This document shows, piece by piece, positions 1 through 40,980 of a stretch of 64,000 nt of DNA. The DNA comes from an uncultured Eubacteriales bacterium (GTDB lineage Bacteria; Bacillota; JAAYKD01), in NCBI GenBank assembly GCA_964425745.1, contig CAYRNW010000012.1, positions 250-64,249 of the forward strand, read 5' to 3'. Position 1 is the first letter of the stretch. Every line of letters starts with the position of its first letter. The notes under the pieces are model-generated. The model was not told where the DNA came from. It worked only from the letters and a program-made list of their open reading frames with translations, and did not search any database. Made by a program: the position numbers and the translations under genes.

Positions 1-3000
1 CTTCTAAAAGTCCCATCGTTTCTTAACGTTGGTGGAGAAAGCCAAGCAATAGTCGCAATATATTGATCTGTTTCATTCACTGTAGAATCTGGTGTGTTCT
101 TCCATGACGGAGCCGTTATTCCGCTAATTGCTGCAATGTCGATCGTCTGCAAGATTGTTGTCGTGGGACTGCTCAGAACGGCTGATCCTGGGGTGATTCC
201 GGCACTTGCAACAGGTGTTACTTGGAATCTAATGGTTTTTCCGCGTTCATTCGTTGTTAAGGTATAGGTTGTTGAAGTAGCTCCCGGTATTGCTTCATCA
301 TCAGCATACCATTGATATGAGGTGGCGCCTTCGCCATCTAAATCATCATCACTGTACTCATAACTGCCATCAAGACGTTGACCTACCCGTAAGGTTCCCG
401 AAATGCTTACATTGCTTGCCACCGGTGCGTGTTGTTCGGTTACGGTTAAAGTGGCAGTCTCAGTCGTCTGCAAAGTAGCATCATGAGTTATCGTGACTGG
501 TTGCCCATTATGCAAGGCCGCTGTTAAGGTAGAACCGTTCGCCGGGGAAGCATTGAAACCAATTGCGACACCGTCGATGAATTCCACTACCACTGTACTA
601 CCATCGTTATAGGTTTCCGTAATGACCAGACCAACTAATGATAAAATCTCAGTCATCTCTTTGTAAACCAGTTTACTTGGTTGTGTGGTTGCTTCAATTG
701 AAACCAGTTGCAATGCGACAGTTGCTGGGAACTCCGCTAAAAAGGTCACAGTATTGCCCGCTCCATTACCACTCCGTACCGTGTTCGAAATCGTTGAAGC
801 ACCAACAATACTAGGTCTAAACGGAGTCGCAGAAAATGCTGTTCCGTTCTTAGAAGTTAGGGTAATCGTTGCTGTGTAAGCCGTATCAGCAGCGTACTTT
901 CCGCCTGTTGTCAGAGCAGGACTCCAACTTAAGGATGATACTGTAAAGTTCGGATCAGAGGTTAACGTTTCCACATCCCCCGAATTCTCCGGCGTTGCAC
1001 CAACTACAGGAGTGGTCATGTTAACTGTCGCAGCTGAGAGCGCGGAGGTTGCAACAGGCAAGGATTCTGCACTACTTACAACAGACCCCGTCAAAGTACC
1101 ACGTTCTGCTACAGGAGTAACTTTGAAGAAAACTGTTTTACCGGCATTGGCAGCAGTTAACAAATAAGTCAAGTAGCTGCTACCGGCCCCAGAGGATACC
1201 GATACTGAATCGACAATCCATTCATAATACGTAGAATCCGTATCTACTTCATCGCCATTGACATCAGAATAAACATAGTAACCGGTGAGGGTTTCACCTT
1301 TGACAAGTTCACCTAATATACTTACATTGGTTGCTTTCGGTGGCGCTTCTACTGAGAGCGGAGCGGTTCCAATTGTTACATTGCTATCAGTATGTGTAAT
1401 GCTAACTTCGTAAAGGTGATTATCACCTGTTAAAGCGCTTCCATTCATTGGCGAAGTTTCGTATCCTGCTGGTGTTCCAGAAGCAAAACTAACTGTGGCT
1501 GTACTGCCATCGTTGTAAAGCTCAGTGAATTCTAAGCCAGACAAATCTAAGACATCATCGGACCCTTCGGTATAGCTGAGCTTCGTTGGCTGACTCAGTA
1601 TTGTTAGACTTGACACTTTCAAAGGTTCAGTAGCATCATAGTTTACGGTAAACTCAACCGTATTCCCTACTACACCAGTATCAGACACTGTTATGTCGGA
1701 TATTGAAGAGGAACCTGAAACAATCGGTGCAAAACTTGGCACAAAGGTTTTCATGTTCTTGGATTCCATGGTTACCGTAGCAGAGTAGCTTGTATCAGTG
1801 TTAAATTTTCCTAAAGGTGTCATGGGTTCGTTCCAGACCACATTGGTAACCACAAAATCAACCGAGGAATTCACCCCTTCAACTTGAGAAGTAGTCTGTG
1901 GTGTAGCTCCTACCACAGGAGCAACCATACTGATGACAGGAGACTCGATCAGTCCAATCACAACTGTATCGGTTTGAGCTGAGACCTGACCGGTATACGC
2001 TCCGCTTCCAGTTGCAATGACTTTCATATAGTAATTGTATTGATTCGGTTGAAGCGCATACGAGGACGAAGTAGCTCCCGGAATATCGGCATAAACTCCA
2101 TCTGCTGCGGTGAAAACTTGCCACTGGTAGGTTGCCGTTGCTCCTTCAGGCAAGAGGTTTGCTGCCGTAAGTGTTTCTCCTACCTGAATGATGCCACCAA
2201 TATCGACATGGGTCAGCGCGGTCGGTGACAAAGTGACTGGACCGGTATAATTACTCATGATTGTACCGGAATAGCTTTCCGAGCCAGTGACCTCCACCTT
2301 GAAATAGTAATCTTCTGCTTCACTATCAGCAAAGGTGTAGGCATTTGATGTAGCTCCTTCAATAGCAGTATACTCTCCTGTTGGAATTGTTGTGTTCGAC
2401 TTATACCACTGATAGGTCACCTCTGCACCGAGCGGCGTTACAACACCCGCTGTTAACGTAATATTTGAAGCCTTAGTAGTATAAAGAATATCAGAAATCG
2501 CTAAAATTGGAATGGCTTCCCCAAAACCTACAACCGGTCCTTTCACACTTGATGTCACAGTTCCTGAATAAGAACCACTCCCTGTAGCAACAACCTTGAA
2601 ATACATACCTAAGTCGCTTTCTTGAACCATATATTGATTGTTGGTAGCTCCGGCTATGTTTTCAAAAGTATCTTGTGGATTCATTGCTCTTTGCCACTGA
2701 TATGTTACAGTTGCTCCTAATGGCAATACAGTCCCTGCAGTTAAGGTTTGCCCAGGTGACGTAGTTCCTTGGATAGCGCCAATGGAAGTTAAAGGGTTCA
2801 CCGGCTCTTCCTCAAGAATGTAGCCAATTGTTTTTTGTTGGCTACCACTATAAGCCCCTGTTCCGGTAATGGTTACACGAATTTGACGGTTTACGGTTTT
2901 CCAATTCAATAAACCAAGTTTTTCTGGAATTAAAACTGAATTCGTTGTAATTCCTGTATCTGTCCAACCAAGAATCGCAATATTAATCTCCCATTTGTAG

Positions 3001-7808: not shown

Positions 7809-7912
7809 AAAAAAACCGACCGCATTCCTGCGGTCGGACGGTCATCACTTCAACAGTGTTCAGACTCCAGACTTTGCGTCCTACTCTTTCAAGTAGTTTG
7901 CCAATAAACATC
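7809..7912 (-). ncRNA. c-di-GMP-I (GEMM) riboswitch with overlapping intrinsic terminator
   Basis: Minus strand reads GGCAAACTACTT-GAAA-GAGTAG-GACGCAAAGTCTGGAGTCTGA...ATGACCGTCCGACCGCA-GGAA-TGCGGTCGG-T7. It has the GGCAAAC, GAAA tetraloop, GACGCAAA and tetraloop-receptor motifs of class I. Confidence 0.9.
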
Positions 7913-8048: not shown

Positions 8049-11000
8049 TTAATTAGGAACCACTGCTTCAGTCGGATCACTCTGAACGGGATTACCTGGT
8101 GTTAGTCCAGTTGCTGCAAACGGTGTAACTTCAAAGCGAATCACCTTTCCTACATCACCGGCTTGCACCACATAGGTAGTTGTCGTTGCACTTGGTATTT
8201 CAACTGCATCTGCGTACCATTTGAAGGTGGATGTTCCTTGTGAATCACTGTTGGCGTCATAATATTCGTAAGACCCATTCAAGGGTTGTCCTACTTGAGC
8301 CGTTCCGCTGATGCTTACAGAACTTGCTACCGGTGCCACCTGCGCTTGTACCGCAAGGTTGCTGGTCGTAGCTGTTTTGGATGAGTCTGTGTGGGTGATT
8401 GTTATTGGTTGCCCATCATGATCTGCATTCGTCAATACAGTTCCATGAGCCGGATCAGCGGTATACCCTGCTGCTACTCCATCGGTAAAGGGGACTTGAA
8501 TTTGTGACCCATCGTTATGAGTAGCGGTAACAACTAAACCGTTAAGGGATAAGGTTGCATCCGTCATTTCAACATAGCTCATATCGGAGGGAGGTGCTTG
8601 AATGCTTAAACTATCAACCGCCAAAGCTCCGGTTTGCGGAAAGGAAACTGTGAAGGTAACCGTATTACCAATACCCAATCCGCTGGTGGTTGTAGTTCCT
8701 ACTGAACTCGCAGTTGTCACCGTGGGTGTAAAGAAAGTCCATTGGAACGTAGAATCATTCTTAGATGTCAAGGTGACCGTCGCTGTATACACCGTGTCCG
8801 CTTTGAATTTTCCAGCCGCAGTCAACGCTTCGTTCCAGGTAAGACCCGTTACCGTATAATCGTCATTTGCAGTTTGGGTTTCTACATTTTCTAGAGTATC
8901 GGGTGTAGTACCTAAGACCGGAGCAACAATGTTTACCGAAGCACTGGTGATGGTATTCGTTGCAACCGGTAAGGTTGTAGTGCTTGTAACCGCAGCACCG
9001 GTTGAACTTCCGCTTGCCGCAGCAGGGGTGACTTCTAAGAGAACCGTTTTACCGATATCGGCTGCTGTCAATGTATAGCTTAAATAACTACTTCCCGCAC
9101 CAGCAGAAACCGATACTGAGTCGATAAACCATTCATAATATGTAGTATCCGTATCTTCTGCATCACCGTTGACATCATAGTAGGAGTAGTTTCCTGTTAG
9201 TGCCGAATTTGCCGCTGCAGTCCCTGTTATAGTAACATTGCTCGCACTGGGTGGAGCTTCTACGAAGAGGTTGGCGGTAGTTGCTGTTTTCCCCGAAGCC
9301 GTATGAGTGATAGTCACGGAGCTATCGTGCTGAGCTCCCGTGAGGGTAGATCCATCTTCTGGAGAAGCGGTATATCCTGCTGCAGTGCCATCGGTGAAAA
9401 TTGTTGTGGTAATAGTACCATCATTGTTGGTTTCAGTAACCACCATTCCATCGAGTGCCAAAACACCATCGGTAGTTTCTACATAGACTAATTTGGTCGG
9501 TTGGGTTGTTACAGAGATAGAGGTTGGCATGAGAGCCCCGGTTGGTGCAAAGGTAGCAGTGAAGGAGACTGTATTTCCCACATCGCTACCGGAGGTGGTG
9601 GTCGTGCCAACCGAAGCTGCACTGGCTACCATGGGTGTAAAGGGAGTTGAAACAAAAATCTTGGTATTCTTGGAGGTCAAGGTCACGGTGGCAGTATACG
9701 CGGTTCCTGCTTTGAATTTTCCAAGGGGAGTTAATGCTTCGTTCCACACGAGGCCCGTCACTTCATAATCCGGATGATTGGTAGTGCTTTGCACCTGAGC
9801 TGCTGTTTGAGGAGTGGCCCCCAAAACTGGAGAAGCCATCGTAACTTGAGCCGAACTCAACAAGCCAATAATCTTGGATGTGGTATCTGCAAATTTAGAC
9901 CCCGTATATGCTCCACTACCGGTTGCAATCACCCGAACATAGTAGTTATATTGAGCTGGTTGCAGTGTATAGGTAGAGCCTGTTGCACCCGGTATGTCGG
10001 CGAAAACTCCTCCGGGACCGGTAAAGACTTGCCATTGGTAGGTTGCAGTTGGGTATGTGTCACCTGGCCATAAATTCTCAGCGGTTAAATTCACTGCGGA
10101 TAACGTCTCTCCCACTTTGTTAATCCCACTTACTTGGACACTAGTTAACTCTTCAGGTGTAACTACTACCGGTCCGGTTGCATTGCTTAAAGCCGTTCCG
10201 GAATAGCTACCTGAGCCGGTAACTTCTACTTTGAAGTAAGATCCCAAAGCTTGGTTCACCGGGATTGTATAAACACTGGATGTGGCTCCTGAAATGTTCG
10301 AGTAGGTTCCACCGAGTGAAGATGCAACCTTCCACTGATAAGTTACCGTTGCTCCCATGGGAGATACTGTTCCGGCAGTCAAAGTTAATTGCGGGACCGT
10401 TGTGTATAAGATATCCGATATAGAAGCAATTTGTATAAATGAACCGGAGGAAATAACCGGTCCGGTGGATGCTGAAGTCAATACCCCTGAATAATTTCCT
10501 GTTCCAGTAGCAACAACCCTCAAGTAGTAGTTCAAGTCCCCCGCTGGAATGGTATAACTGTTCGTTGTAGCACCCGCTATGTTCTGGAATGTTCCACTTG
10601 GAGTTAAACTTCTTTGCCATTGGTAATCTACAAATGCTGAAGCTCCGCTTGGTGTTATTGCACCGGCTGTTAAGGTTTGACCAACTGCTGAAGTACCAAC
10701 AATTGAGCCCATGGCTTCCAGCGTTTCTAAGGAACTATATGCTACGATATCTACGGTAGTTCCAGTCGTTCCTAGCGTTCCGGTATAAGCTCCCGTTCCG
10801 GTGATAATGACACGAATATCCCGTCCCACCGTGGAAGCATTATTTCCGGGTTGCCTGTCTGGAATCAATACCGACTGTGTTGAAACACCGATATTGTTCC
10901 AGCCTCCGCCTCCGCCTCCGCCTTGAGAAATCTCCCATTGGTAAGTCACCGTTGCTTCTGCAGGGTCAATGGAGAACGCAACCAAGGATTGATTGACTGA

Positions 11001-14000
11001 TTGCTCCCCTGCCGGGGTATATTCTCCAACTCTTGTTATGGGCCTTTTCCCAATCTGAGCGGTGGCATTTGATCTGAATACTCCACCAAAATTCCCGGTA
11101 CCAGCAATCTCGACCTTAATATACTTTAGATAATCTTCTACCGTTGTATAATATGTAGAAGCTGTAGCTCCGGGTATGGGGATATAAGTACCCCCAGAGG
11201 TATTTGATCTATACCATTGGTACGTCACAGTTGCTCCGCTTGGCGAGACCGACGTGGCGTTCAACGTCCGATTCACTTGGAATCGATTTCCGGATTCGGT
11301 TATCACCACATTCGTAACACTCGTCAGAGGGGTGTCTATCACTGGACCAATAGCACTACTTGTGATGGTGCCGGTATAGAAACCCGTTCCTTCTACCTTC
11401 ACTTTGATATAAGAAGTTAGATCCTCGGTTGTTAAGGTATACGTTTCTGTATTGGCTCCATCAATGGCTGAATAACTACCTTCCAGAGTCGAAGCTCTCA
11501 TCCATGTATAGGTTGCAGTTGCCGATACAGGGGTAATCGCTCCCGCCGTTACAACTGAGCCAACCGTTCTACTCCCACTTATAGAAGACAACGCAGCTAA
11601 AGCTCCCTTACCGATGAGTGAAGTCGGTTCACTCTCGGCCCAGCCATAATACCCTCCCGAACCTGTAATTACGACCTTTAAATAATGGTTAAAATCTTGA
11701 TCCGTCAAACGATACGTTGAAGCAGTCGCACCTAAGATTGCTGAATACGTCTCGGCATTGGCTGCGCGACGATACCATTGATATGTTACCGAAGCACCAA
11801 AAGGAGTGGTTGTTCCTGCGCTCAATAAGTTGCTTACGGTTGGATCTCCTACGATAGGACTAATCGCCGTGATTTTGCTTGGGTCTTCTTTCAGGGGACC
11901 GAAGAAATAACTATCGACTGAACCAGTGAATCCTTTCGATTCATCCCCACTGACTCTGACTTTGTAATAATATTTCTCTTGACCTGTAGGAGTTGTGAAC
12001 TCGTCTGGAAATTTGTAATAATAGTCTGTTGCTCCGGTTATATCGTAAAAGGTAGCTGTTAATGGAGTTCTAGAACTGGTATACATCCACTGATAGGTAA
12101 CAGCGGCACCAGCAGGAGTTACTTCTCCGGCGAGCACTAACTCACTTAGAGCCGGTGTACCAATAATGTTTGCAACAGCTGTTATGGTTTGCATTCCCGT
12201 TACTAGCCTGCCTGTTACGGTTACGACACCTGTATAAGCTCCTGTTCCGGTTACCACGGGTCGAACGTACTTCTCAAAGTCATTTGCTGTTAAAACGTAG
12301 GAAGTATTAATGGCACCGCTGATGTTGCTAAAGTTGATATTATCTTCCGATCGTTGCCATTGAACACTATAGGTTGCACCGCTCGGTCCTACGGTACCGA
12401 TTGTAACCGTATCCCCTACCGATAAGGTTCCACTTGGAGTGAATCCTCCCATGGTGATCGTTTGCGGGACTGTACCACTGGGTTGAATCGCAAGAGTTGG
12501 TTGACTTTCAGCGGTTCCTTCATAGGAGCCGGTTCCGGTCACAAATAACTTAATTGTTTTCCCTAAATCATCTTCCGTCAGTAAATAACTACTCAGCGTT
12601 GCTCCGGGAATGTTGGTATAAGAAACCCCATCACTGCTTCGCTTCCATTGATATGTTACCGTGGCACCCACCGGAAGAATCCCACCGGAAGAAAGGGGTT
12701 GACCAACAATTGTTTGTCCCAAAATATTGCCCACAGAATCCACGGTTCCCAACATGATTTTATCGGTTGCATTACTTCTGACTTCATCGTAATACAACCC
12801 AAATCCGGTTGCTATAACTCTCATGTACTTGTTGTGGTCTGCACCGGTCAATGTATACGTCTTTTGAGTAGCTCCCGAAATCGCCTCGTAAGTACCATCG
12901 ATTTCTCCCGAACGTAACCATTGATAAGAAACCGTTGCTCCATAGGGGAAGACGACCCCGGCGGTTAAGATTTGACCCACTTGGGTTATACCGGTGATAT
13001 CACCTATGCCTTGAATCAAATTAGGATCTCCGGTTACGACCGGTCCTGTACTAATACTCGAAACGGTGTCAAAATAACCCTGATTACCCGTGACTGAAAC
13101 TTTGATACTCTTACCAAGATCAGCAGAGGTTATGATATATGTATTTGAAGTCTCTCCAACAATACTCGTATTATCGCTATACTTCCATTGATACGAAACA
13201 TTTGCACCGATTGGAAGTACTGTTCCTGCGGTTAACACTTGGCCCACTTGCGTCTTACCGATGACATTCGATATAGATTCGAGTGGTCGAGCCAGAACAG
13301 GACCAAAGAAAGCACTCGTAATTCCGCTTGGGGGGGTTGCATAAACTCCGGATCCCCAAACCGTCACTTTAAAGTACTTGTTTAAGTCCGCTGCTGTTGT
13401 GGTGTAAGTAGCTGAATTCGCACCACTAATTGCTGTATACGGTCCTCCGCTTACGTCGGCTCGTGACCATTGGTAGGTTACTGTTGCACCTAAAGGTGTC
13501 GTGTTTCCGGCTGTTAACATTTGACCCACTTGAGCGGTTCCACTAATAGTACCTACTGCAGTGATATTGGTAGGGGTAAGAACCACCGGACCAGAATATT
13601 GGCTTGTGACAGTTCCACTGTATAAATTGATTCCCGTGGCTTGAACTTTAATGAATAAACCGATGTCCGTCTCTGTCACTTGATACGTATTCGAATTTGC
13701 TCCTGCAATCGGGATATAGTTTTCACCATTGATATCTGATCGTAACCACTGGAAGTTCACAGTTGCTCCCGAAGGTAATACGGTGCCAGCAGTCAGAAGC
13801 TGACCGTTCGTTGCTGTTCCACTAATATTGCTAATGGACATCAAAGGAGCCGCAGTAATCGGTCCGGCATATCTACTTGTGACGGATCCGGTATATAATC
13901 CTGAACCTGTAGCGGTAACTTTGAAGTAAAATCCTTTGTCTGCTCCTGTTAGTACCAATGTTTGAGAGGTTGCACCTGAAATAGGTAAGTATATCCCATC

Positions 14001-15695
14001 CATCGAACTACTCTTCAACCATTGATATGTTACAGTTGCACCATAAGGGGAAACCGTTCCTGCTGTCAAAGTTTGAAATACCTGAGTTAAGCCAATACTA
14101 TCTGCAATTGAAGATAGATGGGTAAGTGTAGTCCCAGCGGCTGAGGGAACAATGTATTGACTTAGCACTGTACCATTATAAGCACCGGTTCCGATTGCTG
14201 CCACACGAATATAGGTATTGACATCGGAAGCACTCAAGGTATAGGTACTACTATTTGCTCCAATAACGGTGTATGATCCACTAGGATTCGTCGTGCTATA
14301 TCTTCTCCACTGATAATCTACCGTCGCTCCACTCGGTAAAACGGTACCGGCTGTTACAACTTGCCCTTGTATTGCGGAACCACTAATATTTCCAATGGAT
14401 TGTAATGGCATAGCAGCCACAGGTCCGAGAGCATTGCTGTCTAACGTGCCGGTGTAAGATCCGGAACCCGTCACAGTAACTCTAAGATGCTTTCCAAAAT
14501 AACTAGCTGCTATGGTATAGGTATTACCGGTTGCACCAGATATTATGTTCCATGGAGCACTTCCGTTATCGGAAAAATACCATTGATACGAGGCAGTTGC
14601 TCCACTAGGAGCAAGCGCTTCTACCGTAAGAGTCTGTCCTACTTGTGCCGTGCCGGTTATCGTTACAGGTGCCGTTAGAGAAATACCTGCTGTTACTACC
14701 GGTCCACTTCGTACCGAAGTGACCGTTCCAGAATAATCCCCGGTTCCGGTAGCAACGACTCGTACATATCGGTTTAGGTCTTCTGGATTCACTGGCACAT
14801 AGGTGGAACTCGTTGCACCTTCAATGTTGCTAAAAATACTACCACTGGTATCGGATCGTTGCCACTGATAGGTCACCTCTGCTCCTGAGGGAGTCAAAGG
14901 TCCCGCAGTTAAAGTATTCCCAATGGTGGTGGTTCCAACAATGGGGTCAAGATCGGTGATTTGAATTTTATCGCTGATAATAGGACCCATGCTGGCAAAT
15001 TCAGTTCCACTATAGGTGTTTGACCCGGTTGCATAGACACGCACAAATTTATCGATCATGGATTCGGTTAACAAGAGCGTGATATTGGTCGCTCCACTTA
15101 TATTGACGTAAGTCCCATTGAGAGTATCGGCAATCTTCCATTGGTAGGTAGCGGTGGCACCGGTGGGAAGCAAGCTGCCCGCAGTGACCGTTTGTCCTAC
15201 TACCGCATTGCCCTGGATAGCACCCATGGACTCCAAATCTATGGCGGCAACGACAACCGGGCCAACTGTAGAACTGTAAACAGTGCCGGAATACTCTCCG
15301 GTTCCTTTGACTGCGACTCGAATGTAATGATTATTGTTCTCAATATCCAAGTAGAACGTTTCTAACGTCGCATCAGGAATATCAATAAATTCTCCCTCCA
15401 GAGAATTGGCTCGTTGCCACTGTATCGTATAAGTGGATTCTTCATCCGTTACTACAGTGGCAGTCAATGTCTCATACTGGCGGGTTGTGCCTAATATGCT
15501 AATCTCCGCAACAAGTTCTTGTGCAAAATCAGCGGAGAAGAATGTCAAATCTGCCCCAACCGAATCCAAAACATATTTCGACAAAGAGGGACTGGAAGCA
15601 ACAAAAGAAACGATGAGTACAGTAGAAGTAAGCAGAAGCCCTAAAGCTCTGCCAAGTTTTGAAGAATGGTTGATCACCGTTCTACGTAACCTCAT
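8049..15695 (-). CDS. Giant secreted Ig-like repeat protein A (putative adhesin), 2548 aa
   Basis: SD AAGGAGG then ATG; hydrophobic signal ending SLS|KY. Twenty ~90-aa repeats (G-x-L-T-A-G...P-x-G-A-T-V-x-Y-Q-W...I-x-G-A-T...Y...D...Y-x-x-V...G-T-G-x-Y-x-G) resemble AIR9/A9-type Ig folds. Then 2x [APVLGATP domain + bacterial Ig group-3-like domain + AIR9-like domain]. No C-terminal LPXTG, SLH or TM segment. Confidence 0.92.
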   Translation of the reverse strand: MRLRRTVINHSSKLGRALGLLLTSTVLIVSFVASSPSLSKYVLDSVGADLTFFSADFAQELVAEISILGTTRQYETLTATVVTDEESTYTIQWQRANSLEGEFIDIPDATLETFYLDIENNNHYIRVAVKGTGEYSGTVYSSTVGPVVVAAIDLESMGAIQGNAVVGQTVTAGSLLPTGATATYQWKIADTLNGTYVNISGATNITLLLTESMIDKFVRVYATGSNTYSGTEFASMGPIISDKIQITDLDPIVGTTTIGNTLTAGPLTPSGAEVTYQWQRSDTSGSIFSNIEGATSSTYVPVNPEDLNRYVRVVATGTGDYSGTVTSVRSGPVVTAGISLTAPVTITGTAQVGQTLTVEALAPSGATASYQWYFSDNGSAPWNIISGATGNTYTIAASYFGKHLRVTVTGSGSYTGTLDSNALGPVAAMPLQSIGNISGSAIQGQVVTAGTVLPSGATVDYQWRRYSTTNPSGSYTVIGANSSTYTLSASDVNTYIRVAAIGTGAYNGTVLSQYIVPSAAGTTLTHLSSIADSIGLTQVFQTLTAGTVSPYGATVTYQWLKSSSMDGIYLPISGATSQTLVLTGADKGFYFKVTATGSGLYTGSVTSRYAGPITAAPLMSISNISGTATNGQLLTAGTVLPSGATVNFQWLRSDINGENYIPIAGANSNTYQVTETDIGLFIKVQATGINLYSGTVTSQYSGPVVLTPTNITAVGTISGTAQVGQMLTAGNTTPLGATVTYQWSRADVSGGPYTAISGANSATYTTTAADLNKYFKVTVWGSGVYATPPSGITSAFFGPVLARPLESISNVIGKTQVGQVLTAGTVLPIGANVSYQWKYSDNTSIVGETSNTYIITSADLGKSIKVSVTGNQGYFDTVSSISTGPVVTGDPNLIQGIGDITGITQVGQILTAGVVFPYGATVSYQWLRSGEIDGTYEAISGATQKTYTLTGADHNKYMRVIATGFGLYYDEVRSNATDKIMLGTVDSVGNILGQTIVGQPLSSGGILPVGATVTYQWKRSSDGVSYTNIPGATLSSYLLTEDDLGKTIKLFVTGTGSYEGTAESQPTLAIQPSGTVPQTITMGGFTPSGTLSVGDTVTIGTVGPSGATYSVQWQRSEDNINFSNISGAINTSYVLTANDFEKYVRPVVTGTGAYTGVVTVTGRLVTGMQTITAVANIIGTPALSELVLAGEVTPAGAAVTYQWMYTSSRTPLTATFYDITGATDYYYKFPDEFTTPTGQEKYYYKVRVSGDESKGFTGSVDSYFFGPLKEDPSKITAISPIVGDPTVSNLLSAGTTTPFGASVTYQWYRRAANAETYSAILGATASTYRLTDQDFNHYLKVVITGSGGYYGWAESEPTSLIGKGALAALSSISGSRTVGSVVTAGAITPVSATATYTWMRASTLEGSYSAIDGANTETYTLTTEDLTSYIKVKVEGTGFYTGTITSSAIGPVIDTPLTSVTNVVITESGNRFQVNRTLNATSVSPSGATVTYQWYRSNTSGGTYIPIPGATASTYYTTVEDYLKYIKVEIAGTGNFGGVFRSNATAQIGKRPITRVGEYTPAGEQSVNQSLVAFSIDPAEATVTYQWEISQGGGGGGGWNNIGVSTQSVLIPDRQPGNNASTVGRDIRVIITGTGAYTGTLGTTGTTVDIVAYSSLETLEAMGSIVGTSAVGQTLTAGAITPSGASAFVDYQWQRSLTPSGTFQNIAGATTNSYTIPAGDLNYYLRVVATGTGNYSGVLTSASTGPVISSGSFIQIASISDILYTTVPQLTLTAGTVSPMGATVTYQWKVASSLGGTYSNISGATSSVYTIPVNQALGSYFKVEVTGSGSYSGTALSNATGPVVVTPEELTSVQVSGINKVGETLSAVNLTAENLWPGDTYPTATYQWQVFTGPGGVFADIPGATGSTYTLQPAQYNYYVRVIATGSGAYTGSKFADTTSKIIGLLSSAQVTMASPVLGATPQTAAQVQSTTNHPDYEVTGLVWNEALTPLGKFKAGTAYTATVTLTSKNTKIFVSTPFTPMVASAASVGTTTTSGSDVGNTVSFTATFAPTGALMPTSISVTTQPTKLVYVETTDGVLALDGMVVTETNNDGTITTTIFTDGTAAGYTASPEDGSTLTGAQHDSSVTITHTASGKTATTANLFVEAPPSASNVTITGTAAANSALTGNYSYYDVNGDAEDTDTTYYEWFIDSVSVSAGAGSSYLSYTLTAADIGKTVLLEVTPAAASGSSTGAAVTSTTTLPVATNTITSASVNIVAPVLGTTPDTLENVETQTANDDYTVTGLTWNEALTAAGKFKADTVYTATVTLTSKNDSTFQWTFFTPTVTTASSVGTTTTSGLGIGNTVTFTVSFPQTGALAVDSLSIQAPPSDMSYVEMTDATLSLNGLVVTATHNDGSQIQVPFTDGVAAGYTADPAHGTVLTNADHDGQPITITHTDSSKTATTSNLAVQAQVAPVASSVSISGTAQVGQPLNGSYEYYDANSDSQGTSTFKWYADAVEIPSATTTTYVVQAGDVGKVIRFEVTPFAATGLTPGNPVQSDPTEAVVPN

Positions 15696-20001: not shown

Positions 20002-20112
20002 AAAAAAAGTCCGACCGCAAGAAGATTGCGGTCGGACGATCATGACACAATTTTGTGCTTTAGATTCCAGACTTTGCGTCCTATTTTTTCAAATAGTTTG
20101 CCAAAAGTTAAA
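20002..20112 (-). ncRNA. c-di-GMP-I riboswitch with overlapping terminator, upstream of the sipW operon
   Basis: Minus strand reads GGCAAACTATTT-GAAA-AAATAG-GACGCAAAGTCTGGAATCTAA...ATGATCGTCCGACCGCAA-TCTTC-TTGCGGTCGGAC-T7; nearly identical to the copy at 7809. Confidence 0.9.
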
Positions 20113-25435: not shown

Positions 25436-26576
25436 CTATTGAATACTACCATACATCTGAAAGATCGGCATCATGACAGCCAACATGACAAAGCCAATGA
25501 TTACCGCCATTATGATTAACATAATCGGTTCAACCATGGTCGTCATTTTAGATAACGAAATCTCACTTTCGTAATCTAAACTTGCTGAAATCACATTCAG
25601 CATATGTTCTAAATTTCCGGTTTCTTCTCCTACAAAAATTGTGGAGGTCAGTTTTTGCACAAATCCATCGATTTTTCCTACCGCGTCCGCTAGAGTTCCT
25701 CCGCGTCGTACCGCAATAATTACATCTTCAAATTGAGCCGAAATGAAACGGTTTCCCACCGTTGTTTTGCCTACTTGTAAACACAACAATACCGGCATCC
25801 CACTGGAATAGAGCGAACTCAAAGTTCTGGCAAAACGGGCGGTATAGATCGTGCGCATTAAACGACGAATCGGTTTGAACCGAATCTTGAATTCGTCCAT
25901 TTCATATGCCACTTGCGGTAACCGCATGAAGGCTTGAAATAAGAAGACAAAAACTGCAGAAGCTGCAATGGCGATATACCAGTAATGACTCATAAACTCA
26001 CTAGCATTCATGACCACGCGGGTGGGCAAAGGTAACAATGATCACCACGGCAGCCAAGGTCAATAAGCCTAAAATCATGGGGTAGGTCATAGCACCACTG
26101 ATTTTTTGATTCATGCGATGATCTTTTTCAAAATATTCCCCCATGCGAGCAAGGGTTTGATCGAGGCTGCCGCTGATTTCCGCAGCTGCGACCATTTGCA
26201 CCAGCAGTTCCGGAAAAGCCGGAGCTTAGGAGCCCATGGCAACCGATAAAGCAACGCCCTGGCGAATTTGTACCTGCAGTTCATCATAGACTGCACGGGT
26301 TGATTCGGGTAGCTCTTCTTCCAACGATAAAATGTTTAAAGCACGCACTAAGGATACACCTGCGTGGAGCAAGGTTCCCATTTGCGTGCAAAAAGAGACC
26401 ACCGCCGGAAGCTTAAGTCGCTGATGACCGCTTCGCTGTTGGACCGGTTCGATGGACGTTGCAAAGATGCCTGTTTCTTGCAATTTTAAATAAAGTTGGT
26501 GGTCGTCCATGGCGTCCGCGGTGCCTTTAAGGGCTTTGCCAGCGGAGTTATAGCCATTGTACTGAAATTTCGGCAT
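25436..26576 (-). pseudogene. pilC: Type IV pilus platform protein PilC (GspF family), disrupted
   Basis: In-frame TAA at 26226-26228 (AMGS*APAFPELLVQM) and a frame-shifting deletion near 26030. The motifs GEISGSL-type, YPMIL, LPLPTR and GEETGNL are present. Confidence 0.88.
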
Positions 26577-26611
26577 GACGTCTCCCTACTTTGCTGGAGT
26601 ACTCTCCCGCC

Positions 26612-26674
26612 GCAAAAAGATCCTTCCGGGCACTCATGACCAAGGTCAAAGGTGCCCTTCAGGAAGCTTTTTGC
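26612..26674. repeat. Dispersed ~65-bp palindromic element, copy 1 (in the pil operon leader)
   Basis: GCAAAAAG-ATC-CTTCC-GGGCAC-TCA-TGACC-AA-GGTCA-AAG-GTGCCC-TTCA-GGAAG-CTTTTTGC; colinear with the reverse complement of 63716-63783. Confidence 0.7.
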
Positions 26675-26738
26675 TTATTTAGCTTTCTAATTAATTTTCT
26701 TCCTTTTAATGACAGGGAATTTTATCCTCGTACAATGA

Positions 26739-26767
26739 GTTATACAAGCATAATTGTATGCTGTCAA
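26739..26767 (-). promoter_or_regulatory. Sigma-A promoter for the pil operon
   Basis: TTGACA, 17 nt spacer, TATAAC. Confidence 0.65.
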
Positions 26768-26900
26768 CGTTTTTTTTGATAATTGAGAAGGATTTTCGGA
26801 TTTTATTGAGTAAATTTAGCTAATAGTAGTCATTCCTATTTATGGTAATTGAAATTAAAATAACATTAATGTAACTTGTAAAGTAACTAATTTTGTACAC

Positions 26901-26927
26901 AAAAAAACCACCGCACTTCTGCAGTGG
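26901..26927 (-). terminator. Terminator of the tRNA-Met operon
   Basis: CCACTGCA-GAAG-TGCGGTGG followed by T7 on the minus strand. Confidence 0.8.
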
Positions 26928-26940
26928 AACGTATGTCGTT

Positions 26941-27016
26941 TGGTAGCGGAGGTCGGATTTGAACCAACGACACAGCGGGTATGAACCGCTTGCTCTGCCA
27001 GCTGAGCTACTCCGCC
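26941..27016 (-). tRNA. tRNA-Met(CAT), elongator type
   Basis: GGCGGAGTAGCTCAGCTGG...CGGTTCATACCCG...GGTTCAAATCC...CTACCA cloverleaf. Confidence 0.92.
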
Positions 27017-27026
27017 AAGAGTAAGA

Positions 27027-27103
<77 letters not shown>

Positions 27104-27121
27104 ATTTCTACTGGCCTGTGT

Positions 27122-27150
27122 ATTATACGATAAGTTGGTTACGATGTCAA
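27122..27150 (-). promoter_or_regulatory. Sigma-A promoter of the tRNA-Met pair
   Basis: Consensus TTGACA, 17 nt spacer, TATAAT. Confidence 0.8.
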
Positions 27151-27241
27151 GTGTGAGCACAAATTTCTTTTACTATGAAAAAATACGATTCCCTCTCTTT
27201 ACAAGGGCGGTTGATTGTGCTAAAATACTCCTTGTTCTCAC

Positions 27242-27317
27242 GGGTCATTAGCTCAGCTGGTAGAGCAGCTGACTCTTAATCAGCCTGTCCGGGGTTCGAA
27301 TCCCTGATGGCCCACCA
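27242..27317 (+). tRNA. tRNA-Lys(CTT)
   Basis: GGGTCATTAGCTCAGCTGGTAGAGCAGCTGACTCTTAATCAGC...GGTTCGAATCCCTGATGGCCCACCA; preceded by TTTACA-17-TAAAAT and followed by a hairpin plus T tract. Confidence 0.95.
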
Positions 27318-27369
27318 AAACTCTCTTTGCACATGCAGAGAGAGTTTTCCTTTTTTTTGAAATTTCCTC

Positions 27370-27398
27370 TTGACAAATGAAATCGTTGCCTTTATACT
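27370..27398 (+). promoter_or_regulatory. Sigma-A promoter of the ABC importer operon
   Basis: TTGACA, 17 nt spacer, TATACT. Confidence 0.8.
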
Positions 27399-27430
27399 GA
27401 CACAAACACTAAGGCAAGGGGGAAACCACA

Positions 27431-27538
27431 ATGAGTAAGAATTTACAAAATTCTTCTTTCGCAGGTTTCTATTCCTATGCCTATTTTTATTATTTTAGCA
27501 GCACCGGGCGGAATCGACGGATCCAGCCTGTTCGTTGA
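27431..27538 (+). CDS. Tyr/Phe-rich attenuator leader peptide (35 aa)
   Basis: SD GGGGGA; MSKNLQNSSFAGFYSYAYFYYFSSTGRNRRIQPVR*; 5 Tyr and 4 Phe within residues 10-22; lies between the promoter and a terminator. Confidence 0.8.
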   Translation: MSKNLQNSSFAGFYSYAYFYYFSSTGRNRRIQPVR

Positions 27539-27559
27539 GCTACCTAAAAAGGAGCTAAC

Positions 27560-27594
27560 AACAGCCTCGTCGGTTTCGACGGGGCTGTTTTTTT
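27560..27594 (+). terminator. Attenuator terminator
   Basis: AACAGCCTCGTCG-GTTT-CGACGGGGCTGTT followed by a T run, upstream of the first structural gene. Confidence 0.85.
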
Positions 27595-27675
27595 ATACTT
27601 TTTTAGACGTTGTTACCTGATCCGGTCTGGCCAGACGGATTTAGATAAAAAAATTAATGAGGAGACGATTTTATC

Positions 27676-28659
27676 ATGACTCAAAAGAAAAATCTTGTTT
27701 TAGCAATGCTTGCTCTCATCCTCGTATTCATGCTCAGTGGTTGTAACACCCCGGCACCCGCCCCTACTCCGACCCCCGAGCCCAAAACCGTATTTAAAAT
27801 TGGCATTGTACAGTTAGCAGAATTTCCGGCTTTAGATGCTGCCACCCAAGGATTTCAAGATGCCTTGACCGAGAAACTCCCGGATCAGGTAGAATTCGAT
27901 CTGCAGAATGCTCAAGGGGAGCAAACCAATGCCACGACCATTGTCAACAAGTTTGTCAATGATAAAGTCTCTCTAATCATGGCCAATGCTACCAATTCCG
28001 TAAAAGCGGCTCGCGAAGCCACTTCTACCATTCCCATTGTCGGCACTTCCGTAACCGATTATGTAAAAAGTGGCTTAGTGGAATCCAATGAAGCCCCCGG
28101 GGGTAATGTTACCGGCGCTTCCGATAACAATCCGGTCGATGTCCAGGTTGAACTCTTGGCGGCCTTGGTTCCCGATGCCGAAGTAGTTGGCATTGTCTTC
28201 TCTTCTGCCGAAGAAAATTCCGAGATCCAAGCCGTTGAAGCCAAAGCTGCATTAGAAGCAAAAGGGTATGAGGTAAAAATCTACACCGTTGCTGACTCCA
28301 ATGAGATTCAAACCGTAGTTACCAAAGCTTGCACCGAAGTCGATGCTTTCTATGAGCCCAGTGATAACTTAATTGCCTCCAATGTTCCCACCATGGCGAA
28401 CATCACCACAGCTGCCGGAATCCCGGTCATTACCGCCGAATCCAGCATGTGTGAAGCCGGTTTCTTGGCGACCTACTCGATTAGCTACTACGATTTAGGA
28501 CACAAGGCTGGAGAAATGGCCTTCGAAATTTTAGTCAATGGTGCAGATCCTGCAACAACCCCAATTTTCACCTTTGATACTTCCAATTTGACATTATTCA
28601 TCAATCAAGAAGTTGCCGATGCTTTGGGCATTGTCATCCCTGAAGGTCTTCTAAAATGA
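27676..28659 (+). CDS. ABC transporter substrate-binding lipoprotein (ABC_sub_bind/TrpX-like; likely aromatic amino acid)
   Basis: Lipobox LSGC; KIGIVQLAEFPALD, QNAQGE, PIVGTSVTD, VTGASD, PSDN motifs. Confidence 0.88.
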   Translation: MTQKKNLVLAMLALILVFMLSGCNTPAPAPTPTPEPKTVFKIGIVQLAEFPALDAATQGFQDALTEKLPDQVEFDLQNAQGEQTNATTIVNKFVNDKVSLIMANATNSVKAAREATSTIPIVGTSVTDYVKSGLVESNEAPGGNVTGASDNNPVDVQVELLAALVPDAEVVGIVFSSAEENSEIQAVEAKAALEAKGYEVKIYTVADSNEIQTVVTKACTEVDAFYEPSDNLIASNVPTMANITTAAGIPVITAESSMCEAGFLATYSISYYDLGHKAGEMAFEILVNGADPATTPIFTFDTSNLTLFINQEVADALGIVIPEGLLK

Positions 28660-39616: not shown

Positions 39617-39624
39617 CAAGAAAA

Positions 39625-39717
39625 CATATTCGGGGGAGCTTGTAGTAGCAGGCTGAGAGGAAGTTCTCAAAACTTCGACCCTTTAACCTGATGTGGGTAA
39701 TGCCACCGTAGGGAGTA
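39625..39717 (+). ncRNA. TPP riboswitch
   Basis: GGGGAGC...GCTGAGAG...GACCCTTTAACCTGAT-GTGGGTAATGCCAC-CGTAGGGA. Confidence 0.95.
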
Positions 39718-39737
39718 AGGAATCCTTGCTTGCAAGC

Positions 39738-39769
39738 GGAGAATGCCCAAAAGGCGTTCTCCTTTTTTT
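39738..39769 (+). terminator. TPP expression-platform terminator
   Basis: GGAGAATGCC-CAAAA-GGCGTTCTCC plus T7. Confidence 0.85.
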
Positions 39770-39795
39770 GTTGCCCTGAAAGAAAGAAGGTTGCT

Positions 39796-40980
39796 ATGGA
39801 AGAACCCAAAACTTCTACTTTTTCTCATGGATTGCTTTGGTTTGGTGCCGGAGTATCCATTGCCGAAATCCTAACCGGAACCTTGTTTGCACCGTTGGGA
39901 TTTGAAAAGGGCTTAGTCGCCATACTGTTAGGCCACATAATCGGCTGTGGACTGCTGTTTTTGGCGGGACTCATGGGTGGACGCACCGGCAAAAGCGCAA
40001 TGGAAACGGTCAAGATGTCCTTTGGCCAAAAAGGCTCCTGGTTATTTTCCGGTTTGAATGTGTTGCAGCTCCTAGGTTGGACCGCCGTCATGATCTACAG
40101 CGGGGCTGTTGCCGCTCAATCCATAGCTCCGTTTGGCGGTTTATCCTTGTGGAGTATGGTAATCGGTGCTTTGATCTTGGTGTGGATTTTGATTGGCATC
40201 ACCAACTTGGGAAAAGTTAATCTTGTTGCCATGACTGCTTTGTTTCTTCTGACCCTTGTTTTAAGTTCAGTTGTTTTTGGTCAAGGGGTGGCCACCCCCC
40301 AGAGCACCGGGTTATCTTTTGGTGCAGCGGTTGAGCTCTCAGTAGCAATGCCCCTCTCTTGGCTGCCCTTGATTTCGGATTATACCCGCAAAGCCAAAAA
40401 GCCACTAGCAGCCTCTGCTGTGAGTGCGGTGACCTACTTTGTCACCAGCACCTGGATGTATCTTATTGGTTTAGGAGCAGCACTATTTACCGGTGAAGGG
40501 GATATCGCTGCGATTATGATCAAAGCTGGATTAGGAACCTTAGCGTTGCTGATCATTGTCTTCTCAACCGTGACAACCACCTTTCTCGATGTCTACTCTG
40601 CTGGTGTTAGTGCCGAGAGCATCTCAAAAAAGCTCAAGGAAAAACCCGTTGCCCTTAGCATTTGTATCTTGGGGACGGTTCTCTCGATTATGGTTCCCAT
40701 TACCCAATTTGAACATTTTTTGTATATGATTAGCTCCGTCTTTGCTCCCATGATTGCAATCCAATTGGTGGACTTCTTCGTATTAAAACGAGATCACTCC
40801 AAGCAAGCCGTTCATGGCTTAAACCTGTTTGTTTGGCTCTGTGGATTTGTACTGTATCGATTCTTACTTTCTCAAAATACAGCAATTGGTATTACAGTCC
40901 CCGTCATGTTTCTTACGGCCTTATTTCACTGGCTGATCACAAAAATCACAAGTATTATAGGAGGTAGAGCTCATGTTTAA
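39796..40980 (+). CDS. cytX: Putative hydroxymethylpyrimidine transporter CytX (NCS1-like)
   Basis: LWFGAGVSIAEI, QLLGWTAVMI, MPLSWLPLISDYT, STVTTTFLD; first gene after the TPP switch. ATG 39796 is preferred to the ORF-track start. Confidence 0.88.
   Translation: MEEPKTSTFSHGLLWFGAGVSIAEILTGTLFAPLGFEKGLVAILLGHIIGCGLLFLAGLMGGRTGKSAMETVKMSFGQKGSWLFSGLNVLQLLGWTAVMIYSGAVAAQSIAPFGGLSLWSMVIGALILVWILIGITNLGKVNLVAMTALFLLTLVLSSVVFGQGVATPQSTGLSFGAAVELSVAMPLSWLPLISDYTRKAKKPLAASAVSAVTYFVTSTWMYLIGLGAALFTGEGDIAAIMIKAGLGTLALLIIVFSTVTTTFLDVYSAGVSAESISKKLKEKPVALSICILGTVLSIMVPITQFEHFLYMISSVFAPMIAIQLVDFFVLKRDHSKQAVHGLNLFVWLCGFVLYRFLLSQNTAIGITVPVMFLTALFHWLITKITSIIGGRAHV

Follow-up and report, generated by a model that had tools for sequence, protein, structure and literature searches.

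A candidate tyrosine- and phenylalanine-codon leader-peptide attenuator upstream of an ABC importer operon in uncultured Bacillota

A 64,000-nucleotide (nt) stretch of DNA from an uncultured Eubacteriales bacterium (contig CAYRNW010000012.1; hereafter, the window) contains a short open reading frame (ORF), rich in tyrosine and phenylalanine codons, that lies between a promoter and an intrinsic terminator upstream of the three genes of an ATP-binding cassette (ABC) importer (Table 1). We consider it probable that this leader is a ribosome-mediated (leader-peptide) transcription attenuator of the trp/phe/his type, and that it controls the uptake of tyrosine and possibly phenylalanine by the importer. 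A first-pass annotation, made from the nucleotide letters, had proposed attenuation at this site; the promoter, Shine–Dalgarno sequence, 35-amino-acid ORF and strong terminator that it listed are all where it placed them, and its interpretation appears supported by the comparisons described here, with a larger and corrected antiterminator. The element is a known classic mechanism in a new place rather than a new mechanism, and its status as a previously unannotated leader-peptide attenuator, confined to a small clade, is well supported.

Eight of the ten codons in the regulatory run are aromatic, and the run is the sole ten-codon stretch with at least seven Phe, Tyr or Trp codons in any of the six frames of the 64-kb window. 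The ORF, the terminator and an alternative stem that overlaps the terminator recur in eight further variants on other contigs, so that nine distinct leader variants are available. They represent four sub-lineages of uncultured Bacillota, with Negativicutes as the label of one record, and their loci encode binding proteins 71–100% identical to that of the window. These relatives (loci with L numbers in Table 1) were gathered mostly by anchoring on the binding protein or the terminator core, not by way of the aromatic codons. All nine variants have TTGACA and TATAC[TA]-like promoter boxes and a purine-rich Shine–Dalgarno sequence 6–9 nt 5′ of the ATG. Over the spans of the nine ORFs there is no stop codon in the ORF frame and 16 in each other frame. 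Leader length ranges from 31 to 45 codons and the N termini diverge freely in sequence and length, and the aromatic run varies by Tyr/Phe exchanges and one 3-nt in-frame (whole-codon) indel; the core [Y/F]-Y-F, as well as both Tyr and Phe codons, is retained throughout. This is the pattern of variation that would be expected if only codon identity within the run mattered. Conservation of the ORF and of its Tyr/Phe codons in orthologous leaders had been named in the first-pass annotation as a check on its own reading, and both are kept in the nine variants.

Table 1 Features of the leader and importer locus in the window (forward-strand positions), and leader peptides of the window and of related loci
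Feature	Coordinates	Strand	Details
Sigma-70-type promoter	27370–27398	+	TTGACA (27370–27375), 17 nt, TATACT (27393–27398); 11/12 matches
P1 helix	27412–27482	+	Shine–Dalgarno region 27412–27427 with codons 12–17, G-F-Y-S-Y-A (27464–27482)
Shine–Dalgarno sequence of leader ORF	27416–27423	+	AAGGGGGA; 7 nt before ATG
Leader ORF	27431–27538	+	35 codons and TGA (27536–27538); peptide MSKNLQNSSFAGFYSYAYFYYFSSTGRNRRIQPVR
Regulatory codon run	27467–27496	+	F-Y-S-Y-A-Y-F-Y-Y-F; 5 Tyr and 3 Phe in 10 codons
Region 2, predicted antiterminator 5′ strand	27497–27520	+	CGGAAUCGACGG (27509–27520) pairs with UCGUCGGUUUCG (27567–27578)
P2, local hairpin sequestering region 2	27505–27530	+	Part of minimum-free-energy fold of window, L001, L020 and L022
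P3 hairpin	27527–27564	+	Stem 27528–27541/27553–27564 and apical CCU/AGG stem; 3′ base AACAG shared with terminator
Intrinsic terminator	27560–27596	+	13-bp stem (27560–27589; 8 G-C), GUUU loop, U7 tract
P5 hairpin or palindrome	27621–27639	+	TCCGGTCTGGCCAGACGGA; invariant TGGCCA centre; read by eye, between terminator and importer start
Substrate-binding lipoprotein, PF04392	27676–28659	+	E = 3e-66; tyrosine-type pocket
ABC permease, PF02653	28656–29522	+	Pfam
ABC ATPase, PF00005	29522–30295	+	Pfam
Leader peptide, window			MSKNLQNSSFAGFYSYAYFYYFSSTGRNRRIQPVR
Leader peptide, L019			MLKNLRNSSFAGFYSYAYFYYFSSTGRNRRIQPVR
Leader peptide, L010 and L011			MLNTLQSCSFAGFYSYAYFYYFSSTGRNRRI
Leader peptide, L001 and L020			MLNALRNVSVVGFLSYAYYYFYFSSFRRNRRI; two DNA variants, one peptide
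Leader peptide, L012			MHALPTDYLVAVAAKACNSSASLFSYTYFYYFSSLLKNRRRVPAN
Leader peptide, L017 and L023			MHAIPTNKLDTVAKKTCNTFAGLFSYTYFYYFTSLARNRRREPAN
Leader peptide, L022			MSGNLVLQQKRQALSVCNKALVSLTNSFYYFSKTGRNRRF
Leader peptide, L002			MTDILLSKNSHAAALNTKLEASLAFVSFYFSSTGRNRRF

The element has a narrow distribution. A metagenome scan with the terminator core returned only four contigs, all from the same clade, and a leader-peptide profile compared with 5.8 billion proteins matched only two called, unnamed ORFs, the peptides of which are identical to the L017 and L019 variants; neither has a Pfam family or a name in its source. In L002 and L021 the leader lies about 400 nt further upstream, beyond a tandem-repeat insertion.

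The leader RNA is strongly structured (fold z = −6.7, with none of 200 dinucleotide shuffles as good). Its terminator is near-invariant, with 99% of alignment cells paired and a core unchanged even in orthologues whose binding proteins are 71% identical, which fits a strand that has to serve two partners. The best duplex partner of the terminator 5′ arm is region 2, which follows the aromatic run, in all eight variants modelled (−17 to −21 kcal/mol, compared with about −14 kcal/mol for shuffled upstream sequence). Region 2 pairs there with a strand made up of the terminator loop and the upper part of the 5′ arm. In the helix between them 94.8% of cells are paired, and the core changes are pair-preserving only (A-U to G-U, G-U to A-U and U-G to U-A). 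Beyond this helix, AGCAGC/CCG (27497–27506) can pair with the terminator 3′ arm at 27580–27589, an extension that L019 and L010 adopt in their minimum-free-energy folds.

The alternative stem from which attenuation had originally been argued, here P3, is present as written and overlaps the leader stop codon. It is well supported by comparison: seven of its 15 pairs have changed on both sides (CUGUU/AACAG, CUGCA/UGCAG and CUGCU/AGCAG are compensatory examples), 90.8% of cells are paired, and no shuffle matched its covariation score. The further claim that this stem takes the 5′ arm of the terminator holds only for the lowest 5 of 13 base pairs. P3 was rejected as the sole antiterminator, given this limited overlap and its coexistence with the terminator in the minimum-free-energy fold of the window. 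The full antiterminator is instead predicted to be the region 2 pairing stacked on P3, in one long composite hairpin.

The position of the codon run relative to these strands is constant. In all nine variants, the first base of the last run codon is 18 nt 5′ of the AAUCG core of region 2 and 15 nt 5′ of the start of the 12-nt helix strand; the footprint of a ribosome stalled on the run would be expected to stop just before region 2. The stop codon takes one of two positions. It is 12 nt past the core in five variants (L010, L001, L020, L022 and L002), where a terminating ribosome would cover region 2, and 24 nt past it in the other four (window, L019, L012 and L017). In the segment 27519–27538, the window and L019 have CAG at the place of the TAG stop of L010, L011, L001, L020, L022 and L002, so that translation continues for five more codons and ends at a second in-frame stop, TGA (TAA in L010). 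L012 and L017 also stop five codons later.

We propose the following course of events. Transcription would start near 27405, and the 35-codon leader would be translated while it emerges. With Tyr-tRNA and Phe-tRNA charged, the ribosome would pass the aromatic codons and region 2 to reach the stop codon, where region 2 and the P3 5′ strand would be unavailable; with region 2 or P3 masked, the terminator (27560–27589 and U7) could then form, and transcription would end before the importer genes. Were either tRNA poorly charged, the ribosome would stall within 27467–27496, its footprint ending just short of 27509, and the free region 2 would pair with 27567–27578 as soon as this strand was made. 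The resulting helix would stack on P3, which would hold the base of the terminator 5′ arm, so that the terminator would be blocked and RNA polymerase would read into the importer operon. If the leader were not translated at all, P1 would hide the Shine–Dalgarno sequence, P2 would hide region 2 and the terminator would form, making the system off by default. It is plausible that the charging of both tRNAs is sensed, because codons of both types are kept in every variant.

P1 encloses a hairpin in the N-terminal coding region; the Shine–Dalgarno region has a pairing probability of 0.72–0.95 in all eight variants modelled, despite their differing sequences, and its partner strand is always at or just 5′ of the aromatic run. 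P2, which would act as an anti-antiterminator in ribosome-free RNA, analogous to the trp 1:2 structure, is absent from L012 and L017, which fold differently at this segment. The terminator and antiterminator folds of ribosome-free RNA are within about 0–7 kcal/mol of each other, and it is the antiterminator fold that has the minimum free energy in L019, L010 and L012. Folding with a ribosome mask at equilibrium did not by itself predict the switch and is used here only for these near-isoenergetic alternatives; some forced-pair runs gave identical energies for both states (L019 and L012). Because equilibrium energies favour the terminator by a few kcal/mol in most states, the switch must be kinetic. 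The attenuation decision in the Escherichia coli trp operon is likewise kinetic.

The arrangement of the locus is consistent with the importer being the target of the leader, as the first-pass annotation had it. A tRNA-Lys(CTT) gene (27242–27317) lies upstream of the leader promoter and has its own terminator (27317–27348), which makes the leader a transcription unit of its own. Between the leader terminator and the importer (plus strand, 27590–27676), a consensus scan detected no promoter-like site, although an unusual promoter could escape such a scan. Metatranscriptome contigs from one run (X26) at 27460–27653 and 27624–27704 cross the terminator at a depth of 3–6, as assembled sequence without read ends; read-through RNA can thus join leader and operon. 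The features by which attenuators of this type are recognized occur together: an ORF with its own Shine–Dalgarno sequence and start codon, a cluster of cognate codons, a terminator with no detected later promoter and a predicted, mutually exclusive antiterminator.

The binding protein gives a separate indication of the substrate. It matches the Protein Data Bank entries 3lft, 6hni and 3lkv, which hold Trp, Tyr and Phe, respectively (PMC6816091). In CD0873 (6hni), tyrosine specificity has been attributed to Glu-263, which hydrogen-bonds the hydroxyl, and to Tyr-279, which excludes tryptophan (PMC6816091). Alignment places Glu and Tyr at the corresponding positions in the window protein and in all leader-bearing orthologues examined, and the window protein thus has the residues of a CD0873-type tyrosine binder. 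It scores 270 bits against TrpX (NCBIfam NF041285), below the cut-off of 390, and does not have the TrpX-type Gln at the indole-admitting position, where it has Tyr, as in Tyr and Phe binders. Tyrosine is the most likely predicted substrate and phenylalanine a possible one, in keeping with the Tyr and/or Phe assignment made in the first pass. Leader codons and pocket residues are two independent lines that agree on the substrate, and together they provide a sequence-level prediction for an otherwise generic ABC importer of uncultured anaerobic-digester and sludge Bacillota.

T-boxes occur at the loci of more distant importer orthologues, as had been anticipated for this family. At 60–70% identity, the loci L003, L004 (two copies) and L007 score 94–111 bits with RF00230, and L013–L015 have the same T-box motifs on inspection. 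T-box control of this transporter family has been shown experimentally for trpXYZ of Streptococcus suis (PMC9382623). The specifier loops read GAAG-UUC-N or GAAG-UAC-N, and we read the specifiers as UUC (Phe) or UAC (Tyr), because the Rfam consensus puts an NNC codon at the same columns, because the known ligands of the PF04392 family are aromatic and because the T-box codons of L004 track the pocket residues. In L004 (1146–3879), a pair of paralogous binding-protein genes lies in tandem, and a separate T-box serves each of them; the protein with the UAC T-box has Glu at the position that contacts the hydroxyl, and the one with the UUC T-box has Val. They form a natural pair for a specificity rule. 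Other importer orthologues, in L016 (860–970), L005, L006 and L008 (~2800–3000), have neither leader peptide nor T-box. In L016, a terminator-like hairpin in a short leader immediately precedes the Shine–Dalgarno sequence, and a hairpin GATTGAAC...CTTCAA is common to L005, L006, L008 and L007, where it follows the T-box.

Several observations weigh against the attenuator as we describe it. A ribosome at the 24-nt stop would cover the P3 5′ strand but region 2 barely. With a ribosome stalled late in the run, the equilibrium fold favours the terminator by 2–12 kcal/mol. The helix 27509–27520/27567–27578 is without double-sided covariation, and region 2 also encodes the conserved N-R-R, where constraint on RNA and constraint on peptide are inseparable. 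The run is down to four aromatic codons in L022 and L002, of which L002 has one Tyr, and all variants come from one narrow clade, which limits their phylogenetic independence. The RNA evidence consists of a few low-depth assembled contigs. The comparison with T-boxes carries difficulties of its own: their register is ambiguous, and GAA-GUU/GUA (Val) is possible instead of GAAG-UUC/UAC. L003 and L007 combine the UUC reading with Glu in the pocket, which rules out a general pocket-residue/T-box-codon rule, neat for L004 only.

Three other explanations of the locus were considered. The ORF could be an independent small-protein gene with its own terminator, whose product might, for example, be an accessory or membrane-associated peptide in which a basic RNRR tail follows an aromatic core; no amino acid would be sensed, and the importer would be expressed by leaky read-through or from an unrecognized promoter. 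An ORF with a strong terminator does resemble a complete transcription unit, a gene caller called the ORF in two public data sets and the residues S, N, R and R are invariant outside the aromatic run. Yet the strand of RNA that pairs with the terminator is also where the invariant N-R-R codons lie, and the N terminus is conserved in neither sequence nor length. A membrane helix would need a longer hydrophobic stretch than the one present, which is mostly lost in L022 and L002; a type I toxin or small membrane protein was rejected because its hydrophobic segment is short and unconserved. As the two called relatives have neither family nor name, as the scan detected no promoter-like site downstream of the terminator, and as a protein-coding role leaves both the conserved alternative pairing of the terminator and the constant codon-to-helix spacing unexplained, we judge a free-standing gene to be unlikely. 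A structured RNA sensed in trans seems to us similarly improbable. Here a TRAP- or PyrR-like protein, a tRNA or a small molecule would bind the UAU/UUU-rich strand, and the ORF would be incidental. The strength of the RNA structure would be explained, as would the high conservation of a UAU-rich stretch that is predicted to be unpaired and in which UAU triplets recur at intervals of about 6 nt, loosely reminiscent of TRAP sites; orthologues, moreover, do use an RNA sensor, the T-box. However, the start codon, Shine–Dalgarno sequence and open frame survive indels in the nine variants while the other frames are closed, and changes in the run are Tyr/Phe exchanges and a whole-codon indel. L022 and L002 keep one or two UAU triplets only, and no Rfam family, including PyrR and T-box, matches the leader.

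The remaining explanation keeps translation and changes the signal: the nascent peptide itself would be the sensor, as in TnaC, with the aromatic core and the C-terminal RNRR arresting the ribosome on free tyrosine or another signal rather than on tRNA charging. In five of the nine variants a conserved RNRR[I/F/R] adjoins the stop codon, and conservation exceeds the needs of a simple codon run. The RNRR codons are nonetheless accounted for by RNA pairing, and close relatives differ by 12 nt in where the stop lies (the window has CAG in place of TAG), a shift that arrest at the stop would not readily tolerate. Region 2 would also be covered by a ribosome arrested there, and termination would be favoured just as it is when translation is unimpeded. 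We regard a peptide sensor as very improbable.

Stalling on uncharged codons, the reading that we favour, places the leader beside several known systems. None of the Rfam leader families (Phe, Trp, His, Leu, Thr and leu/phe) matched in a scan of 26500–28500 at E values up to 10 or in a scan of the whole window at gathering scores, and the same two scans gave no match to T-box RF00230 or to a riboswitch at the leader. The PyrR site RF00515 reached 21.2 bits against a gathering score of 54 (E = 5.6), and the weak PyrR, sroB and McaS matches at the leader were dismissed as noise. As in E. coli pheL (pheA), pheM (pheST) and trpL/hisL, a promoter-proximal short ORF with a run of cognate codons is followed by an intrinsic terminator before the structural genes; the antiterminator 5′ strand lies just 3′ of the run and would be overrun by a ribosome reaching the stop, the no-translation fold favours termination and the kinetic logic would be the same. 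Unlike those leaders, this one has mixed Tyr and Phe codons, with Tyr dominant in most variants, is found in an uncultured Bacillota lineage and precedes an importer rather than a biosynthetic or tRNA synthetase gene. It is further set apart by its long composite antiterminator and by P1, through which the first regulatory codons sequester the leader Shine–Dalgarno sequence.

In codon content, the nearest analogue is the aroR leader of Corynebacterium glutamicum (Phe-Tyr-Phe), which precedes aroF and is reported to respond to Phe and not to Tyr limitation (Neshat et al. 2014, as summarized in PMC11802643). The two share the form of a Gram-positive leader-peptide attenuator with mixed Phe/Tyr codons and the same core as [Y/F]-Y-F, whereas aroR belongs to the Actinobacteria, controls a DAHP synthase gene and has three regulatory codons as opposed to up to eight (PMC11802643). 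In evolutionary pattern, the predicted His leaders of Firmicutes are nearest. These attenuators were predicted in the Bacillus cereus group, Peptostreptococcaceae and Erysipelotrichales, where they sit at the place in which relatives use T-boxes or HisR (PMC9413887), and the element described here resembles them in being restricted to a lineage, in occupying a slot that relatives fill with a T-box or repressor and in lacking a match to the proteobacterial Rfam families. The His leaders differ in having histidine codons and mostly biosynthetic his operons, as opposed to aromatic codons and a transporter. Their existence also qualifies the first-pass statement that ribosome-mediated attenuation is typical of Proteobacteria, to which it is not confined (PMC9413887). 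The T-box leaders of PF04392 transporters (S. suis trpXYZ, L003, L004, L007 and L013–L015) share with our leader the transporter family, the tRNA-charging signal and relief of a terminator, but bind tRNA directly to RNA where a translating ribosome would act here.

A literature search found no described leader peptide dominated by Tyr, and the present case, with its tyrosine-rich leader peptide, would join a short list of amino acid attenuators. It would also be a further case in which one clade has a leader peptide and relatives a T-box for the same transporter family, which is useful for studies of regulatory replacement. Similar elements are probably under-counted in Bacillota, because gene callers and Rfam both miss such an element. 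More tentatively, and with more doubt than confidence, we raise the idea that a genuine dual sensor of Tyr-tRNA and Phe-tRNA with P1 feed-forward arose in a small Bacillota clade in the slot of related Tyr/Phe T-boxes. The feed-forward would follow from sequestration of the Shine–Dalgarno sequence by the first regulatory codons, such that only a ribosome stalled there would keep the leader open for loading. If this were true, it would be a natural case of a ribosome-based sensor replacing a tRNA-binding RNA sensor on the same transporter, with a feed-forward element absent from textbook attenuators.

The surroundings of the leader vary among the loci. In the window, two tRNA-Met genes diverge from tRNA-Lys (region 26941–27317), and tRNA-Lys(CTT) with its terminator also directly precedes the leader promoter in L001, L010, L011, L019 and L020. 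The upstream neighbours in L012, L017 and L023 are instead a peptidase M20 gene and an AraC-type regulator. P5, about 35 nt before the importer Shine–Dalgarno sequence and without an Rfam match, is also found in L001, L010, L012, L017 and L022; its flanks, compared by eye, are clade-specific yet complementary (GGTC/GAC versus GGAA/TTC). It could be an RNA stabilizer, a processing site or a DNA operator. The insertion in L002 (~620–1000) and L021 (1–250) consists of 4–5 tandem units of about 70 nt between the leader terminator and the binding-protein gene, each with TTGACA followed by a TAAAT-like box. These repeats might supply promoters that bypass the attenuator.

Elsewhere in the window, cyclic di-GMP-I riboswitches occur at 7826–7912 and 20024–20112, both on the minus strand (61–63 bits), one of them ahead of a block of minus-strand ORFs. 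T2SSF domains (type II secretion/type IV pilus protein F) occur in ORFs of the minus strand at 25436–26576, and an ORF of 2,548 codons spans 8049–15695. A thiamine pyrophosphate (TPP) riboswitch at 39622–39731 on the plus strand (68 bits) is directly 5′ of an ORF at 39730–40980.

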